NCBI RefSeq assembly: GCF_044324875.1
Contig: NZ_CP172185.1
From: Escherichia coli
Lineage (GTDB): Bacteria; Pseudomonadota; Gammaproteobacteria; Enterobacterales; Enterobacteriaceae
Length of the DNA stretch: 64,000 nt
Strand: one strand, 5' to 3'
The number at the start of each line of letters is the position of its first letter. The first letter of the stretch is position 1. The position numbers and the translations under genes were made by a program. A model generated the notes under the pieces. The model ran no database searches. It saw only the letters and a program-made list of their open reading frames with translations, and had not been told where the DNA came from. Shown in pieces: positions 7,905 through 61,794 of the stretch.

Positions 7905-9551
7905 ATGAAAGTGACATTAACGTTTAACGAACAACGTCGTGCGGCGTATCGTCAGCAAGGGCTATGGGGCGATGCTTCGCTGGCCGATTACTGGCAGCAG
8001 ACCGCTCGTGCGATGCCAGACAAAATTGCCGTGGTCGATAATCATGGTGCATCGTACACCTATAGCGCGCTCGATCACGCCGCGAGCTGTCTGGCAAACT
8101 GGATGTTAGCGAAGGGTATTGAATCAGGCGATCGCATCGCATTTCAACTGCCTGGCTGGTGTGAATTTACCGTTATCTATCTTGCCTGCCTGAAAATCGG
8201 TGCGGTTTCCGTGCCGCTGTTGCCTTCCTGGCGAGAAGCAGAACTGGTGTGGGTGCTCAATAAGTGTCAGGCAAAAATGTTCTTTGCACCGACGTTGTTT
8301 AAACAAACGCGTCCGGTAGATTTAATCTTGCCGCTGCAAAATCAGCTTCCACAACTACAACAAATTGTCGGCGTGGACAAACTGGCTCCCGCCACCTCTG
8401 CTCTCTCATTAAGTCAGATTATCGCCGACAATACTCCTCTGACCACGGCGATAACGGTCCACGGCGATGAATTAGCCGCGGTGCTGTTTACCTCCGGAAC
8501 CGAGGGTCTGCCAAAGGGCGTGATGCTAACGCATAACAATATTCTCGCCAGTGAGCGGGCTTATTGCGCGCGGTTGAATCTGACCTGGCAGGATGTCTTT
8601 ATGATGCCTGCGCCACTTGGTCATGCAACGGGCTTTCTGCATGGCGTAACGGCACCATTTTTAATTGGTGCTCGCAGCGTGTTGTTAGATATTTTCACTC
8701 CTGCTGCGTGTCTCGCGCTGCTTGAGCAGCAGCGTTGCACCTGTATGCTCGGCGCAACGCCGTTTGTCTATGATCTTTTGAATTTACTGGAGAAACAGCC
8801 CGCTGACCTTTCAGCGCTGCGTTTCTTTCTTTGCGGCGGTACCACAATCCCCAAAAAAGTGGCGCGTGAATGCCAGCAGCGCGGCATTAAATTATTAAGT
8901 GTTTATGGTTCCACAGAAAGTTCGCCGCACGCAGTGGTGAATCTCGATGATCCTTTGTCGCGCTTTATGCATACCGATGGTTACGCTGCCGCAGGAGTTG
9001 AGATTAAAGTGGTCGATGACGCACGCAAGACCTTACCGCCAGGTTGCGAAGGTGAAGAAGCCTCGCGTGGCCCCAATGTGTTTATGGGGTATTTTGATGA
9101 ACCTGAATTAACCGCCCGTGCGCTGGATGAAGAAGGCTGGTATTACAGCGGCGATCTCTGCCGCATGGATGAAGCTGGCTATATAAAAATAACCGGGCGC
9201 AAGAAAGATATTATTGTCCGCGGCGGCGAAAATATTAGCAGCCGTGAAGTAGAAGATATTTTATTGCAGCATCCTAAAATTCACGATGCCTGTGTGGTTG
9301 CGATGCCCGATGAACGTTTAGGTGAACGCTCATGCGCTTATGTCGTGCTGAAAGCCCCGCATCATTCATTATCGCTGGAAGACGTGGTGACTTTTTTTAG
9401 CCGTAAACGGGTCGCGAAATATAAATATCCTGAACATATCGTGGTAATCGAAAAACTACCTCGCACTGCCTCAGGTAAAATACAAAAGTTTTTGTTAAGG
9501 AAAGATATTATGCTGCGATTAACTCAGGATGTCTGTGAAGAGATTGAATAA
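7905..9551 (+). CDS. fadK: short-chain acyl-CoA synthetase
   Basis: AMP-binding motif TSGTEGLPKGV; start taken at MKVTLTF (ATG 7905) rather than the upstream in-frame ORF start at 7851. Confidence 0.8.
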   Translation: MKVTLTFNEQRRAAYRQQGLWGDASLADYWQQTARAMPDKIAVVDNHGASYTYSALDHAASCLANWMLAKGIESGDRIAFQLPGWCEFTVIYLACLKIGAVSVPLLPSWREAELVWVLNKCQAKMFFAPTLFKQTRPVDLILPLQNQLPQLQQIVGVDKLAPATSALSLSQIIADNTPLTTAITVHGDELAAVLFTSGTEGLPKGVMLTHNNILASERAYCARLNLTWQDVFMMPAPLGHATGFLHGVTAPFLIGARSVLLDIFTPAACLALLEQQRCTCMLGATPFVYDLLNLLEKQPADLSALRFFLCGGTTIPKKVARECQQRGIKLLSVYGSTESSPHAVVNLDDPLSRFMHTDGYAAAGVEIKVVDDARKTLPPGCEGEEASRGPNVFMGYFDEPELTARALDEEGWYYSGDLCRMDEAGYIKITGRKKDIIVRGGENISSREVEDILLQHPKIHDACVVAMPDERLGERSCAYVVLKAPHHSLSLEDVVTFFSRKRVAKYKYPEHIVVIEKLPRTASGKIQKFLLRKDIMLRLTQDVCEEIE

Positions 9552-23847: not shown

Positions 23848-24333
23848 TTAGCGGGAAGCGCCAACCGTAAGGCTGGCAATGATTTTTTCGGAGAGTGAGA
23901 GAGATTCGCGATGATTAAGACCAAGAGCAGCACAAGCTTTATTGCGCGCCGGGTTGTCCATGCATTCAAGCACCGGAGAGTCCTGCTTCTCAATTTCCAC
24001 CAGTCGCGCCAGCAACACCTCCGTGCTGAGACCGTCGCTTTCAGTAATCAGGACGTTATAGCGATGAGCCTGTTCTTTTGCAGCCTGAGCGCGTCGCCCA
24101 AATTTCCAGGCGATATTGCAGCCACTAAGCACAGCCACGATACCACCCAGCAACCAACTGAAATTGCTGTCTGCAAACACAGTAGCCCCAGACGTAAGGA
24201 TGACAGCATTAATCACCGTATCCATACGGCGGTTAAACACCTCCGAAATATGTTCAAGCCAGTAACTGTTCCAGAGACGAAACATGACCTCGTGTCGCCG
24301 TTCGGCATGATTTTCAGTTGGTTGTCTGTTCAT
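23848..24333 (-). CDS. hypothetical membrane protein with a two-helix hydrophobic hairpin, opposite strand to early operon
   Basis: 161-aa ORF; hydrophobic stretch INAVILTSGATVFADSNFSWLLGGIVAVLSGCNIAW. Confidence 0.5.
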   Translation of the reverse strand: MNRQPTENHAERRHEVMFRLWNSYWLEHISEVFNRRMDTVINAVILTSGATVFADSNFSWLLGGIVAVLSGCNIAWKFGRRAQAAKEQAHRYNVLITESDGLSTEVLLARLVEIEKQDSPVLECMDNPARNKACAALGLNHRESLSLSEKIIASLTVGASR

Positions 24334-24576: not shown

Positions 24577-25131
24577 ATGTACGCACTTAAACCTATGGGG
24601 ATACCAGGCAAAGCCCCGGCGCATGTGAAAGCCTGGACACAGCAGGAAGATGATTTGCTGATCACCCTGTACCCGCAGCACACAGCACGAGATATCGCCG
24701 GGCGTCTGGGGCGCAGCCACGAAGGCGTGAAGAGCCGCATTTGTCGTCTGCGTGAACAGGGCAGGATTGGCATCAAGCAGCAAAGACTAAGCGATGAGAT
24801 GATCGCCACGCTCATCAGGAACCGCCACACCAGGTCCCTCAAGGAACTGGCACACATGGCGAAAGTTTCGACACGCACGGTAACCAACCGATTGAGGGCG
24901 CTGGGCTACAGCCTGATCAAATGCGGGGATCTGCATAAAAACACCGTCTACAGCGACCGCATCGTTGAGATTATCAGACAGTTACACGACGAGCAGGGCC
25001 TGACGTTCAGGGAAATCGCACAGCGCCTTAGCCACGAACTACAGCCGAACCCTACCCCGACACTGGCTCAACGTCTCTACTGGCGGTGCACAGCATCCGA
25101 CGCCGTATTCCGTGAACTGTTACCAGATTGA
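24577..25131 (+). CDS. putative DNA-binding protein with three HTH-like repeats
   Basis: 184-aa ORF with three similar ~35-aa segments rich in R/K after short helices. Confidence 0.5.
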   Translation: MYALKPMGIPGKAPAHVKAWTQQEDDLLITLYPQHTARDIAGRLGRSHEGVKSRICRLREQGRIGIKQQRLSDEMIATLIRNRHTRSLKELAHMAKVSTRTVTNRLRALGYSLIKCGDLHKNTVYSDRIVEIIRQLHDEQGLTFREIAQRLSHELQPNPTPTLAQRLYWRCTASDAVFRELLPD

Positions 25132-25454
25132 GCAATCACCATGTACACACAAAAAAACCGCTTGCAACAACAAACCGGAACAGGGTACGCTTCCCCCGCA
25201 CCTCATAAAGCGGGTGCCGGGTTTCGCAGCCTGCTGACTAGCAAAGCGCACAACCGCGCCAGCGGTTTTTTTGTGCGTACTGTATTGCCACGTCTTTTTC
25301 GCATCAGAATTATGGTGGGGCGTACGGGGCCGACTTCGGTCGGGCCGGTTTCTTCGTTTGCCGGTGTTGAGAACCCCGTACGTCTCGCCACCCCGAGATT
25401 CTCAACTCTGGTTGGTGAGTATCCAAAAACTCACAAACGAAGAGGCCAAACACC

Positions 25455-25673
25455 ATGGCAAACCGCAAACAGCGCCGCGCTATCGCTGCGCAGCGTCACA
25501 TCCAGACCGAAATCAACCGCAGACTCTTCCGCGCCCACAACATCGCGCGAATCATGCACGCCAACATGCTGCATGAACGCAGTAACGCGTTATCAAACCT
25601 CTATTCCGCTTCCGTTTTCAGCTATCTGGCGGACGACCTGCGCGAGCTGCAAGACCTCATTAACCAGCACTGA
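25455..25673 (+). CDS. hypothetical early protein
   Basis: 72-aa basic ORF. Confidence 0.45.
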   Translation: MANRKQRRAIAAQRHIQTEINRRLFRAHNIARIMHANMLHERSNALSNLYSASVFSYLADDLRELQDLINQH

Positions 25674-25745
25674 TAAACAACCCGAAGCCATCCTGCGCCC
25701 GTTCGCGGGAGGCTTCCGCACATCTGTAGTCGGGAGGATTGCGCC

Positions 25746-26114
25746 ATGATTCTGGCTGACGATTTTCTGGAGTACCTGAACAACACCGAGCGCGACCTGT
25801 ACGCGCGCGTTCTCACCCGTTACGAGAAATACAAACTTTCGCTGCCAGAACATCAACTCCGCGAAGGCGATATCGACATTGAAGGGCGCTACATCGTCAG
25901 GCACCTCATAGCGGGCTACGGCATCTGGCGTGTCACCGGACGTGAGCATTCATTGCTGACCATCTGCCAGAGTCCGTCCGGCGTGATAACGGAGATCGTC
26001 GCTGATAGTCTGCGACTCACCCATCACAGCGCCACCCCGGAAGAAACGCTGGCAGAAACCCAGCGTCTGTGTCGCGTCATTGCCAACGCCGCCCTCCGCG
26101 CAGACAGGAGGTAA
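25746..26114 (+). CDS. hypothetical early protein
   Basis: 122-aa ORF immediately upstream of gpA. Confidence 0.5.
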   Translation: MILADDFLEYLNNTERDLYARVLTRYEKYKLSLPEHQLREGDIDIEGRYIVRHLIAGYGIWRVTGREHSLLTICQSPSGVITEIVADSLRLTHHSATPEETLAETQRLCRVIANAALRADRR

Positions 26115-26117
26115 GCG

Positions 26118-28292
26118 ATGGAGTTCGTCAGAGACTGGCAAAAACCGCGCCCCGCTATCGGGCGCGAAGGCTTACCCGTACCTGAAACCGCACTGGATAC
26201 CATCCTGAAGTGTTACCGCGCGGACGAAGAGCGCGCCCTGAACGCTGAAGAGCAGGGTCATCCGCTTGCGGGCACAACCATCGGTAACGCGATCGACAAG
26301 TGGGAAGGCGCACAGGAGCGCCAGGAAGAGGCCATCACGCTCACACAGGAAGCGAAGAGACGCCCACCCACCCTCATTGAGGAAACCCTCAAAGAGCTGG
26401 ACACCCTGCCAAAGTGGTTGAGGCTGCCACTGATTAAGTACCTGAACTTCTTAAGGCGCAAACAGGAGGACGAACAGCAGAAAGGCAAGCGCGGCAAGGA
26501 CACCCGCAAATATGAGCGCTTCCTGAAAAACGGCATCCCCGCACGTCTTCGCCGTATTCGTGAGATTAACGCTCGCTTTGCACCGTTAAGTTTTCAGGCC
26601 GCTGCCATGCGCGAGAGTCTGGAAGAGTTAATCACACTGCCGAACCTGAGCCGTGAACGCATCCAGAAAATAGCCGTACTGCTTGCCAGCGCCGTTAAAA
26701 TGCATCTTGCCGACGCAATGGACAAGGCCCGCGAAATAACAGGGAACGACAAAGACGACAACCTGAACAACTGGCTGATTGCCTACCAGTATATTGGTCG
26801 CCGTGTCCTGAAGCTGGGGATCACCCCACCATACTGGAGCGCCCTTGAACTCCGTCCCGACCGCAGAAGCCCCCCGGACCTGACACTGGTACCGGGCGCT
26901 GTTTTGCGCCTGAACGACGCCGAATGGTGGAATAAAAAACTTCGCCAGATGCACGACGTCTGGCGTGAGGAACTTTTACGTGCAGCGGGCCTTGTATCCC
27001 GCCAGACCTCCATTTATGTGAGCCGGGAAGCGCTGGCAGACTTCCGCGAGAAACAGGCCCGTACCCGCGATTTTCTCAAAGCGCACGACGTGGAGAACGA
27101 AGACGGCGAACGCATCAGCCTGGAAGATATCTACTACGCCAGTACATCCAACCCGCATAACCGCCGCAACGAGATGATGGCGTGCGTCAAGGGAATGGAG
27201 CTTATCGCACAGGAACGTGGCGACGTGGCCTTCTTCGTCACGGTCACAGCCCCGTCTCGTTTTCACAGCGTCACCGACGCCGGTACCCTTAACCCGAAAT
27301 ACAAAGGCACAACAGTAAAAGACGCCAGCGACTATCTGGTTTATAACTTCTTCGCCTCCGCCCGCAAACTCATCAAAAAAGAGAAGCGGGGCTGGTACGG
27401 CATTCGCACCGTGGAGCCTCACCACGACGGCACGCCCCACTGGCACATGCTGGTATTCACAAGCCCCGAGAACGAAGCGCGCATCACGGAAATCATGTGC
27501 AATGCCGCCATCCGTGAAGACCGTGCAGAGCTGGGCGACGACATTACCCCGCGCTTCAAGTGCGAGAAGATAGACCCCGAAAAAGGTACGCCAACCAGCT
27601 ACATCGCCACCTACATCGGCAAAGGCATTGACGCCGCCGCATTCGGCGACACGGATCCCAAAACAGGCAAACCGCCCGTTGACCACGAAAGCGGAAAACC
27701 TATGGCGGACACCGTGGAAAACGCCGTCGCCTGGGCACGCCTGCATCGCATTCGCCAGTTCCAGTTCTTTGGCCTTCCCTCACGTCAGGTGTGGCGCGAG
27801 TTCCGCCGCCTTGCCGGACAAATGGCACGCAACCCGAAGGGGCCGCAGGCACTGACCAACCCCAAAGCCGACGCCCTCCTTGTTGCAGCCGATACGGGGT
27901 GTTTTGCCAGCTACATCATGCATCAGGGCGGTGTGCTCATTCCCCGCAGTGAATATCTGGCCCGCACGGCCTACGTCACCGCAGAAGAGCCGAACAACTA
28001 CGGCGAGTTCCCCGACCGTATTTACGGTGTACGGATGCCGGAACTGGGCGATGAGTTCACGTTATGTACCCACCCGGAAGAGTGGAAAATCGTCAGAAAG
28101 GAACCGGAACCAGACAACCGCACGGGCGAGGGTTTTGACCTTCAGGGCGACCCCGTCGCCCCTTGGACTCGTGGCAATAACTGTCACCCTGACGAAAAAA
28201 ACAACCAACAACAGCACACAAACAGAACAGTCAGAGTGGGCAAAACTGCCCCCCTTACCCCCATCGTCGGACGGTTTTGTGAGCTGGTTTAA
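26118..28292 (+). CDS. replication initiation endonuclease (P2 gpA-like rolling-circle Rep)
   Basis: 724-aa ORF with HxH metal motif (PHWHMLVF) and downstream Tyr-containing ...YIATYIGKG...; P2 gene order. Confidence 0.85.
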   Translation: MEFVRDWQKPRPAIGREGLPVPETALDTILKCYRADEERALNAEEQGHPLAGTTIGNAIDKWEGAQERQEEAITLTQEAKRRPPTLIEETLKELDTLPKWLRLPLIKYLNFLRRKQEDEQQKGKRGKDTRKYERFLKNGIPARLRRIREINARFAPLSFQAAAMRESLEELITLPNLSRERIQKIAVLLASAVKMHLADAMDKAREITGNDKDDNLNNWLIAYQYIGRRVLKLGITPPYWSALELRPDRRSPPDLTLVPGAVLRLNDAEWWNKKLRQMHDVWREELLRAAGLVSRQTSIYVSREALADFREKQARTRDFLKAHDVENEDGERISLEDIYYASTSNPHNRRNEMMACVKGMELIAQERGDVAFFVTVTAPSRFHSVTDAGTLNPKYKGTTVKDASDYLVYNFFASARKLIKKEKRGWYGIRTVEPHHDGTPHWHMLVFTSPENEARITEIMCNAAIREDRAELGDDITPRFKCEKIDPEKGTPTSYIATYIGKGIDAAAFGDTDPKTGKPPVDHESGKPMADTVENAVAWARLHRIRQFQFFGLPSRQVWREFRRLAGQMARNPKGPQALTNPKADALLVAADTGCFASYIMHQGGVLIPRSEYLARTAYVTAEEPNNYGEFPDRIYGVRMPELGDEFTLCTHPEEWKIVRKEPEPDNRTGEGFDLQGDPVAPWTRGNNCHPDEKNNQQQHTNRTVRVGKTAPLTPIVGRFCELV

Positions 28293-57568: not shown

Positions 57569-57704
57569 CCCCCCGTACTCCGTCTTTCGTTGTTGGAGTT
57601 ATTATAACCCCAACAACTAGTCAAAGCAAGGGTTCGGAGTTATTAGAGTTATAGAATAATTGACTGCCTCCCCAAAACTGCGGCAAGAAAAAACCACTGA
57701 CCAC

Positions 57705-57722
57705 GGTCAATTTGTGGATCAT
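57705..57722. repeat. 18-bp repeat ggtcaatttgtggatcat inside prophage right arm
   Basis: 17/18 match to 20201-20218. Confidence 0.3.
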
Positions 57723-57760
57723 GAATTAATTTTTATTTATAAATCAATGCATTATACAAA

Positions 57761-57782
57761 GAAAAAAGGCCGCAGAGCGGCC
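57761..57782. repeat. attR core gaaaaaaggccgcagagcggcc (part of ihfA terminator hairpin)
   Basis: Identical to 20087-20108; followed by T-run, i.e. intact terminator after ihfA. Confidence 0.7.
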
Positions 57783-57799
57783 TTTTTAGTTAGATCAGA

Positions 57800-58099
57800 T
57801 TACTCGTCTTTGGGCGAAGCGTTTTCGACCCGGCTTTTTAACTTCTGCCCGGGTCTGAAGGTCACCACGCGCCGTGCTGTAATGGGAATATCCTCGCCCG
57901 TTTTCGGGTTACGTCCCGGGCGTTGATTCTTATCACGCAGATCGAAGTTACCAAAACCAGAGAGTTTCACCTGTTCGCCGTTTTCCAGAGCGCGACGGAT
58001 CTCTTCGAAAAACAGTTCAACCAGTTCTTTGGCATCCCGCTTGCTAAGCCCAAGCTTATCAAACAGATATTCTGACATTTCAGCTTTTGTAAGCGCCAT
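57800..58099 (-). CDS. ihfA: integration host factor alpha subunit
   Basis: 99-aa [57 protein letters not shown]... Confidence 0.95.
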
Positions 58100-61550: not shown

Positions 61551-61580
61551 CATACAAAAAAAGCCTCCACTGGGAGGCTT
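61551..61580 (-). terminator. pheST attenuator terminator hairpin (aagcctcccagtggaggctt + T-run on minus strand)
   Basis: Seen in sequence between pheM leader and pheS. Confidence 0.6.
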
Positions 61581-61627
61581 TCAGGCGCTGTTTTCCGTTT
61601 CTCTTCTCACGCGCTAGCCTCCTGGAG

Positions 61628-61672
61628 TCAGGTGCTAAAGTAAAAAAAGAAGCGGAAAATAGCAGCATTCAT
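61628..61672 (-). CDS. pheM: pheST operon leader peptide (Phe-rich, 14 aa)
   Basis: Minus-strand ATG AAT GCT GCT ATT TTC CGC TTC TTT TTT TAC TTT AGC ACC TGA = [14 protein letters not shown]. Confidence 0.8.
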
Positions 61673-61794
61673 TGCTTGCGTTACCTTTTGGTACTTTTCA
61701 AAAGACCTTTATTGAAAAGGCTACGGCGATAAAAGTCAATGTTTTGATGGCGTTGAAACGAAAAGAGGGAGACTAGCTCCCTCTTTCAACTGGC

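Follow-up and report, generated by a model that had tools for sequence, protein, structure and literature searches.

The early region of a P2-family prophage, which adjoins btuC in the chromosome of Escherichia coli (contig NZ_CP172185.1), contains a noncoding gap of 323 bp (25132-25454) between an open reading frame (ORF) for a 184-aa protein (24577-25131) and an ORF for a 72-aa protein. All positions refer to the window, the stretch of 64,000 nucleotides (nt) of this chromosome that was analysed. The prophage is a P88-like complete phage, not a satellite, and P88 itself is inducible with mitomycin C (PMC5285337). The 184-aa protein is of the helix-turn-helix (HTH) type and belongs to phrog_323, with weak HTH matches only in an NCBIfam search, and the 72-aa ORF is followed by a 122-aa ORF and by the gene for a P2 gpA-type replication endonuclease (Table 1). 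RefSeq leaves 320 bp here without annotation, and one GenBank record has them as ‘similar to ash family protein’. An earlier sequence-only reading had described the gap as a structured noncoding stretch that could be a noncoding RNA, a structured leader or an array of protein-binding sites. Here, we describe two RNAs of known families and their target sites within this gap, and we propose, with a probability of about 0.78, that together they form an RNA-based secondary immunity cassette of the type found in P4 and in the immI region of P1, situated in the early operon of a P88-like E. coli prophage.

The two RNAs were identified in an Rfam scan of the whole window, in which matches to the C4 and isrK families both exceeded their gathering scores. 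The C4 match (25308-25395) scores 79.2 bits against a gathering score of 45 (E = 7.5e-14) and covers model positions 1-87, that is, the full length of the model. Its 78-nt core has a minimum free energy (MFE) structure that equals the family consensus, at -48 kcal/mol compared with -30.7 +/- 3.3 for shuffled sequences (z = -5.2; as stable in 0 of 200 shuffles). The complementary strand reaches only -30.3 kcal/mol, and the RNA is therefore on the + strand. The isrK match, likewise full-length, has a score of 64.7 bits (gathering score 50; E = 1.5e-11). It comprises two hairpins (hairpin 1, 25198-25217; hairpin 2, 25218-25233), followed by a linker and then an intrinsic terminator, the last of which had already been pointed out in the sequence-only reading and was recovered by a terminator scan. 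Hairpin 1 and the terminator stem are kept across the 43 aligned sequences described below, and in the MFE fold of the window's own sequence hairpin 2 is weak. IsrK of Salmonella has been recognised as a structural homologue of the P4 seqA element (PMC4825925), and we refer to the RNA in the window as IsrK/seqA-like. Overlapping it, the c4-a1b1 motif (RF03163) scores 23.3 bits, below its gathering score of 46.7. A tRNA/tmRNA scan of the window gave none. Every feature listed in the sequence-only reading lies where it had been placed, and the Rfam E-values and the stability of the fold go far beyond a chance arrangement; the noncoding RNA option was the correct one, though under-specified, given that there are two RNAs of known families together with their target sites.

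Table 1. Features of the cassette and of the genes downstream (positions in the 64,000-nt window)
Feature	Position	Strand	Remarks
Candidate cassette promoter	25162-25191	+	TTGCAA (25162-25167), 18 nt, TACGCT (25186-25191); assigned by position
IsrK/seqA-like small RNA	25198-25272	+	Rfam RF01394 isrK
a1 site	25223-25230	+	UUCGCAGC; loop and 3' arm of hairpin 2
b1 site	25238-25246	+	CUAGCAAAG; directly 3' of hairpin 2
Intrinsic terminator	25254-25265 and 25266-25272	+	ccgcgccagcgg followed by T7; stem in scan 25252-25267
Promoter-like motif TTGCCA-17-AATTAT	25285-25313	+	From promoter scan; nearly invariant in all homologues
C4/CI-type antisense RNA	25313-25390	+	Rfam RF01695; mature ends by analogy with the 77-nt C4 of phage P1
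Stem P1 (17-bp closing stem)	25313-25329 with 25374-25390	+	Contains cgtacgggg/ccccgtacg (25321-25329 and 25374-25382)
P2 hairpin	25330-25343	+	ccgacttcggtcgg; UUCG loop
P3 hairpin	25344-25365	+	Carries the 12-nt b' loop (25349-25360)
a' joint, single-stranded, 8 nt	25366-25373	+	GUUGAGAA
a2 target	25399-25406	+	UUCUCAAC; perfect 8-bp complement of a'
Local hairpin gtgagt/actcac, between a2 and b2	25415-25420 / 25429-25434	+	Fold of 25396-25460, z = -2.9
b2 target	25434-25447	+	CAAACGAAGAGGCC; 14 consecutive pairs (two G-U) with 25347-25360
72-aa ‘derepression protein’, regulated gene	25455-25673	+	Homologue of P4 epsilon
122-aa ORF	25746-26114	+	phrog_3237; downstream in the transcription unit of the 72-aa gene
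P2 gpA-type replication endonuclease	26118-28292	+	phrog_91, E = 7.7e-216; shortened by a frameshift

Between the C4-type RNA and the 72-aa gene lie two segments, a2 and b2, that are complementary to the a' joint and to the P3 hairpin of this RNA, respectively. The partner of b2 comprises the b' loop and two adjoining stem bases, and b2 itself covers the Shine-Dalgarno sequence GAAGAGG (25439-25445), which lies 9 nt ahead of the start codon (ATG) of the 72-aa gene. The summed duplex energy of C4 with a2 and b2 is -24.6 kcal/mol, where the norm for cognate pairs is -25.2 +/- 1.5. These pairings come from segment-wise scans, and folding C4 as a whole molecule against its flanks was uninformative. 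The inverted repeats that had been described as nested are all present, though not all of them are stems of one fold, as gttgagaa/ttctcaac turned out to be the antisense-target pair of a' and a2. The proposal of a structured leader holds in part, since the a2/b2 segment is the leader of the 72-aa gene. The hairpin gtgagt/actcac between the two target sites is only weakly or partly kept in homologues and was rejected as a conserved element; P4 has an analogous hairpin at the equivalent place.

The gene behind these target sites encodes a relative of the P4 epsilon protein. The 72-aa protein matches the Pfam family PF25738, ‘Derepression protein family’ (E = 2.1e-8), as well as phrog_3688, and ‘derepression protein’ is also the name given by NCBI to its homologues. 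A tblastn search with this protein against phage genomes returned only nine P88-like records and did not reach P4 at E <= 0.01, and only a direct pairwise comparison brought the relationship to light: in BLASTP the two proteins share 29% identity over 66 residues (E = 6e-10). Sequences from the PDB gave chance-level matches only. Epsilon of P4 derepresses a P2 prophage by way of the C repressor of P2. The RNA region, the 72-aa gene, the 122-aa ORF and the gpA gene share 82-85% DNA identity with P88 and other Xuanwuvirus-type phages and with the Citrobacter phage phiSM, and in P88 and its relatives the order of these genes is identical to that in the window. The conserved block begins near 25148, and the sequence to its left varies among relatives. 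By megablast, the cassette is present in 1,121 of 5,426 complete E. coli genomes, in up to four copies per genome. For none of the 72-aa, 122-aa, gpA and long ORFs did the NCBIfam search give a family. The gpA ORF itself reads 724 aa in the window owing to an extra A in an A7 run (28195-28201), where two close relatives have A6 and an annotated gene of 829 aa; the frameshift is either a homopolymer sequencing error or the mark of a pseudogene in a decaying prophage.

All of 80 IMG/VR loci encoding the 72-aa protein, and three annotated records in addition, carry the RNA region; they reduce to 42 distinct variants, and the resulting alignment holds 43 sequences. In this alignment the scaffold is almost invariant and variation clusters in six patches, namely a1, b1, a', b', a2 and b2, with 67% of columns variable in the six site cores as opposed to 37% elsewhere. 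Scaffold stems are 98.5% paired with few compensatory changes, and the P1, P2 and P3 stems of the C4-type RNA are 100% paired, with compensatory changes among them. For the antisense-target pairings a'-a2 and b'-b2, 91.2% of cells are paired and 11 of the 20 pairs have changed on both sides (165 such cells), which gives a covariation score of 0.529, compared with 0.122 after shuffling and 0.06-0.17 when the partner is slid along. The pairings a1-a' and b1-b' behave in the same way, with 96.0% paired, two-sided changes in 11 of 17 pairs and a score of 0.630 against 0.118, and in the 42 homologues a1 is complementary to the a' of the same copy. The pairing first seen in a single sequence is thus conserved and strongly covarying in homologous phages. 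These patterns also bear on the notion that the inverted repeats form, at the level of DNA, an array of operators for a protein, as several of them standing close together in an early regulatory region might suggest. The compensatory changes keep RNA pairing and not half-site sequence, G-U pairs make the structure strand-specific (hence the difference between the two strands noted above), and the repeats have no repeated operator-like consensus; we regard such an array, for which the sequence-only reading had left room, as without support and as extremely improbable.

A wider scan, anchored on the invariant terminator, found 203 loci that represent 84 distinct modules. These fall into 26 types by their a' and b' sequences, and 82 of the 84 modules have four target sites that are all cognate to the RNA. 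Where two modules occur in the same genome their types differ in five out of six cases, a small sample that is anecdotal. Discrete types on a fixed scaffold are what should be expected from a trans-acting immunity RNA under selection for heteroimmunity, as in P1 compared with P7. The a-types and b-types reassort freely, 26 combinations having arisen from approximately six a-types and 14 b-types, and each type is written in three interleaved copies that lie only 5-25 nt apart; simple crossovers cannot reassort the types while keeping all three copies matched. One locus (L037 60-417, from IMGVR_UViG_2582580934_000004) has a C4 homologue in which the second hairpin is duplicated, with tandem b' loops CUUUGCUCU and CUUGUGUAG, and its b1 and b2 fit the second of these loops only. 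It may be a dual-specificity immunity RNA or a product of recombination. In a second unusual module (L195), the only other one of the 84 with an imperfect decoy, a1 pairs with its own a' at six of eight positions, and this may be a second natural partial mismatch beside that of the window, which is described below.

Databases treat the same stretch as protein-coding. A 202-aa ORF (25141-25749) runs across both RNAs, matches the Pfam family Phage_ASH (PF10554) at E = 2.9e-4 over residues 16-87 and PHROGs 6928, 995 and 821 at E ~1e-15 to 1e-17, and the names attached to this frame in databases are ‘Ash family’, ‘cI’ or ‘transcriptional repressor’. Of the 43 aligned sequences, 40 keep the frame open, and the P4 record has a ‘cI gene product’ annotated in the same frame (locus L085, 8168-8584, - strand). 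Nonetheless, the frame lacks a coding signature: substitutions fall on codon positions 1/2/3 as 21/31/29, with no third-position bias, compared with 26/20/41 in the 72-aa gene, which is conserved and overlaps the ORF in another frame. Of the 43 sequences, 12 have no start codon here, the ORF contains a strong intrinsic terminator, the residues at which it varies correspond to the multi-base patches of RNA covariation, and the immunity factor of P4 is an RNA. The ORF was accordingly rejected as a protein gene on its codon-position statistics, internal terminator and RNA covariation, in agreement with the sequence-only reading, which had called it spurious, and we consider it very unlikely that this region acts through a protein. 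The Phage_ASH and PHROG matches span exactly the RNA region, and, because of the missing codon bias, the RNA covariation, the terminator, the overlap and the RNA nature of the P4 factor, these families look like translations of conserved RNA genes. PHROGs 29966 and 3960 also match the translated isrK/C4 region, and the PHROG labels read ‘transcriptional regulator/repressor’.

Among known systems, the cassette most resembles the immunity region of P4, laid out as P_LE - seqA - CI RNA - seqC - eta/epsilon - orf151 - alpha. Submitted to Rfam, P4 gives an isrK-like RNA with terminator at 8615-8692 (60.8 bits) and a C4-family RNA at 8420-8507 (74.9 bits), which is the CI immunity RNA, and its own copy of the c4-a1b1 motif falls just below the threshold (44.1 bits). 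The CI RNA is processed from the primary transcript and blocks expression of the replication genes by pairing with seqA and seqC (PMC4825925). The two loci agree in the order and spacing of the isrK-like RNA, the C4-like RNA, the a2 and b2 sites on a ribosome-binding site, epsilon and a replication gene; a1 occupies the loop of hairpin 2 and b1 follows directly on the 3' side, a2 and b2 sit on the ribosome-binding site of the first ORF downstream, and a spurious ORF crosses the RNA in the same frame. In P4, a2 is GUGAGAA and b2 is UUCACAGG, which runs into the AGGAGG of the ribosome-binding site of the next ORF. They differ in that P4 is a satellite with the alpha primase-helicase, whereas the window carries a full P2-like phage of the helper type with the gpA rolling-circle nuclease. 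Furthermore, a small ORF between seqC and epsilon in P4 is absent from the window, which brings b2 directly onto the ribosome-binding site of the epsilon-like gene; the a and b sequences of P4 are not those of the window; and the seqA equivalent of the window, with a1 and b1, is non-cognate. The 122-aa ORF has no similarity to P4 orf151.

The immI region of P1 and P7 (c4 - icd - ant1/2; summarised in PMC8198154) contains a member of the same Rfam C4 family, whose a' and b' pair with a2 and b2 over the ribosome-binding site of a small first gene. The model with a1/b1 and a2/b2 sites, including the proposal that a1/b1 is a decoy, was set out in the supplement of Weinberg et al. 2010, in which the P1 a1 site is placed within hairpin 2 of the upstream motif, with b1 immediately following on the 3' side (PMC2864571). 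Upstream a1/b1 sites are a further point in common with the window, as would be heteroimmunity arising from differences in a and b, and a controlled product that counteracts the main repressor. On the other hand, icd and ant are unrelated to the epsilon-like protein, and P1 is a plasmid prophage with the C1 repressor, whereas the window has the replication gene inside the controlled unit. The isrK - orf45 (STnc1160) - anrP region of Gifsy-1 in turn shares with the window an IsrK of the same family and a Rho-independent terminator, with partial read-through in Gifsy-1. The Gifsy-1 prophage is lambdoid, and its Ant-type anti-repressor is reached by translational coupling from orf45; the window has no such coupled ORF that would end on the start codon of the gene behind it. 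By itself, the read-through mRNA of Gifsy-1 shows no translational activity, an RNA of ~80 nt is processed from the read-through transcript, and the short Salmonella IsrK, which binds Hfq and acts in trans on this transcript, when supplied in trans raises translation of the downstream anti-repressor ~140-fold (PMC4825925).

By analogy with these three systems, and building on the two RNA genes, their complementarities, the covariation and the gene order, all of which were observed directly, we propose the following model for the cassette. Transcription would start at a P_LE-like promoter or read in from the 184-aa gene, and part of it would stop at the terminator, yielding a short decoy RNA. 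The remaining read-through RNA would be processed to a stable C4 of ~78 nt. RNase P makes the 5' end of the C4/CI RNA in P1 and P4, and it may do so here. C4 would next pair with a2 and b2, either in trans or in cis within the precursor, and block translation of the epsilon-like gene, and Rho-dependent polarity or premature termination would keep gpA silent in the lysogen as well as in superinfecting phages of the same type. A cognate a1/b1 would serve as a decoy that ties up a' and b' and so releases the block.

In the copy of the window, this relief step should fail, as its a1/b1 is non-cognate. The a1 site is of the type that matches an a' of CUGCGAA, as in E. coli Ch1, the pairing of b1 with b' is broken into runs of <= 3 bp, and a1/b1 binds its own C4 with -9.2 kcal/mol only, the level of unrelated pairs, compared with -22.4 +/- 0.9 in the 42 homologues and with -22.9 kcal/mol when it is set against the C4 of Ch1. 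As complementarity of a1/b1 to C4 fails here and holds in 82 of the 84 related modules, the mismatch belongs to the copy of the window and not to the C4 family. The window is identical to E. coli Ch1, which is fully cognate and of the same a1/b1 type, from 25100 to ~25303, and identical to E. coli 23CRST011, which is fully cognate and of the same C4 type, from ~25244 onward. Judged by these identities, it is a clean recombinant, in which a single crossover in the invariant spacer would have joined an a1/b1 and a C4-a2/b2 of differing types, leaving a decoy that is predicted to be unable to pair with its own C4. Ten bases within 25196-25243 set this copy apart from the cognate version. The exact hybrid is absent from the 5,426 complete E. 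coli genomes (best match 97.0%) and from IMG/VR.

Thermodynamic folding of the read-through leader is consistent with this. In the predicted structures, a' and b' pair with a2 and b2 in the window and with a1 and b1 in both parental types, and the Shine-Dalgarno sequence in the leader of the window has a probability of being unpaired of 0.01, so that this leader is predicted to be closed with its ribosome-binding site masked. Such intramolecular pairing would also be compatible with a purely cis-acting structured leader, in which the C4-like fold and the a2/b2 pairing are alternative structures of one mRNA and no separate trans-acting RNA exists. A promoter immediately upstream of C4 could not be assigned with confidence, which would suit such a leader, as would the inactivity of the Gifsy-1 read-through mRNA on its own (PMC4825925). 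However, the homologues in P1, P4 and Salmonella are processed to stable trans-acting RNAs of ~77-80 nt, and a switch working in cis needs no diversification, whereas the cassettes comprise 26 types on an invariant scaffold that differ in most same-genome pairs. We therefore consider a leader of this kind unlikely.

The hybrid nature of the copy raises the separate question of whether it is a non-operating relic of an immunity cassette in a decaying prophage. The non-cognate a1/b1, the degenerate hexamers at the position of P_LE, the +1 frameshift in gpA and the absence of the exact hybrid from the genomes and from IMG/VR would all fit a relic. In contrast, C4, a2 and b2 are intact and perfectly cognate at the duplex energy given above, no scaffold stem is broken, the 72-aa ORF is undamaged, with a product that shares 94% identity with a widespread protein cluster, and the frameshift, lying in a homopolymer, could be a sequencing error; a relic hence appears improbable, and we favour a secondary immunity cassette of which the antisense RNA and its targets are preserved.

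Several points nevertheless weigh against the proposal of such a cassette. With a1/b1 non-cognate and the c4-a1b1 motif below threshold, part of the canonical circuit is missing or altered in the window. The candidate equivalent of P_LE, which stops 6 nt short of the start of the isrK model and was assigned by position only, would be a weaker version of this promoter: most homologues have TTGCCA-18-TACATT there, and P4 has TTGCCT-18-TATAGT at an equal distance from its isrK-like RNA, whereas the lineage of the window has the degenerate TTGCAA-18-TACGCT, which the promoter scan missed. The +1 frameshift in gpA means that the prophage may be decaying. Every dynamic step of the model is carried over by analogy. 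P4 acts mainly via transcription termination and P1 via a translational block and Rho, and sequence alone cannot choose between the two modes for the window. The role of a1/b1 as a decoy is itself a proposal made for P1, and the published model for Gifsy-1 is worded as a pairing of IsrK with ‘orf45’. Lastly, one cognate parental relative also masks its Shine-Dalgarno sequence by a local hairpin (probability of being unpaired 0.07), and predicted accessibility therefore does not cleanly separate the two states.

Both RNAs fall into known families, C4/CI and IsrK/seqA, and the element appears to work most like the immunity region of P4; what is new is a member in the P2-like phage group, for which a literature search found no published description of a C4/IsrK cassette. 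Accounts of P2-like phages normally give the C and Cox proteins as their only means of control, and the arrangement described here would place an RNA immunity lock of the P4/P1 type before the epsilon-like anti-repressor and the replication gene of such phages. The cassette occurs in about one fifth of complete E. coli genomes, where it is either blank in RefSeq or mislabelled as ‘ash family’ or ‘transcriptional regulator’, and one or more Pfam families, together with several PHROG families, seem to consist of translations of its RNA. Over many types, a1/b1, a'/b' and a2/b2 covary three ways, which provides a clean natural data set on the evolution of antisense specificity, and the window, as a rare natural mismatch (one or two of the 84 modules), allows a direct test of the long-debated role of a1/b1 in seqA and IsrK. 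One could go further and picture the P88-like cassette as a switch for induction and cross-talk, in which the ratio of decoy to C4 sets the output of the epsilon-like protein and gpA, and in which the at least 26 a/b types make up a combinatorial RNA ‘immunity code’. This is a speculative extension, and we give it a small chance of being right. If it were true, a/b types would govern which P2-like prophages, and perhaps which P4-like satellites, coexist or derepress each other, and the decoy of the window, which matches C4 of the Ch1 type, would not be junk and would derepress a different phage, resident or incoming, while leaving its own C4 lock untouched; alternatively, the hybrid may be a captured intermediate on the way to a new specificity.

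A few further observations concern the surroundings of the RNAs. The promoter-like motif between them, TTGCCA-17-AATTAT, has a second hexamer that extends over the 5' edge of C4 and includes a conserved AUG (25312-25314). The motif may act as a promoter, as the recognition context of RNase P or as the start of a coupling ORF like orf45 of Gifsy-1. As the promoter of C4 itself it was set aside, given the overlap of its -10 element with the 5' end of C4, and it is probably not the C4 promoter because a start ~7 nt downstream would fall inside stem P1. Upstream of the cassette, a 161-aa ORF (23848-24333, - strand; phrog_6315, function not known) and the 184-aa HTH ORF interrupt the early operon. 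At this position P88 has a lipoprotein/protease gene instead, and for this reason the site looks like a variable cargo slot. In the host flank, the Rfam scan found the Phe leader (RF01859) at 61554-61678 (- strand, 74.4 bits) and the small RNA STnc540 (RF02082) at 57703-57858 (- strand, 43.1 bits), both of which fit the pheST-ihfA-btuC neighbourhood of E. coli.

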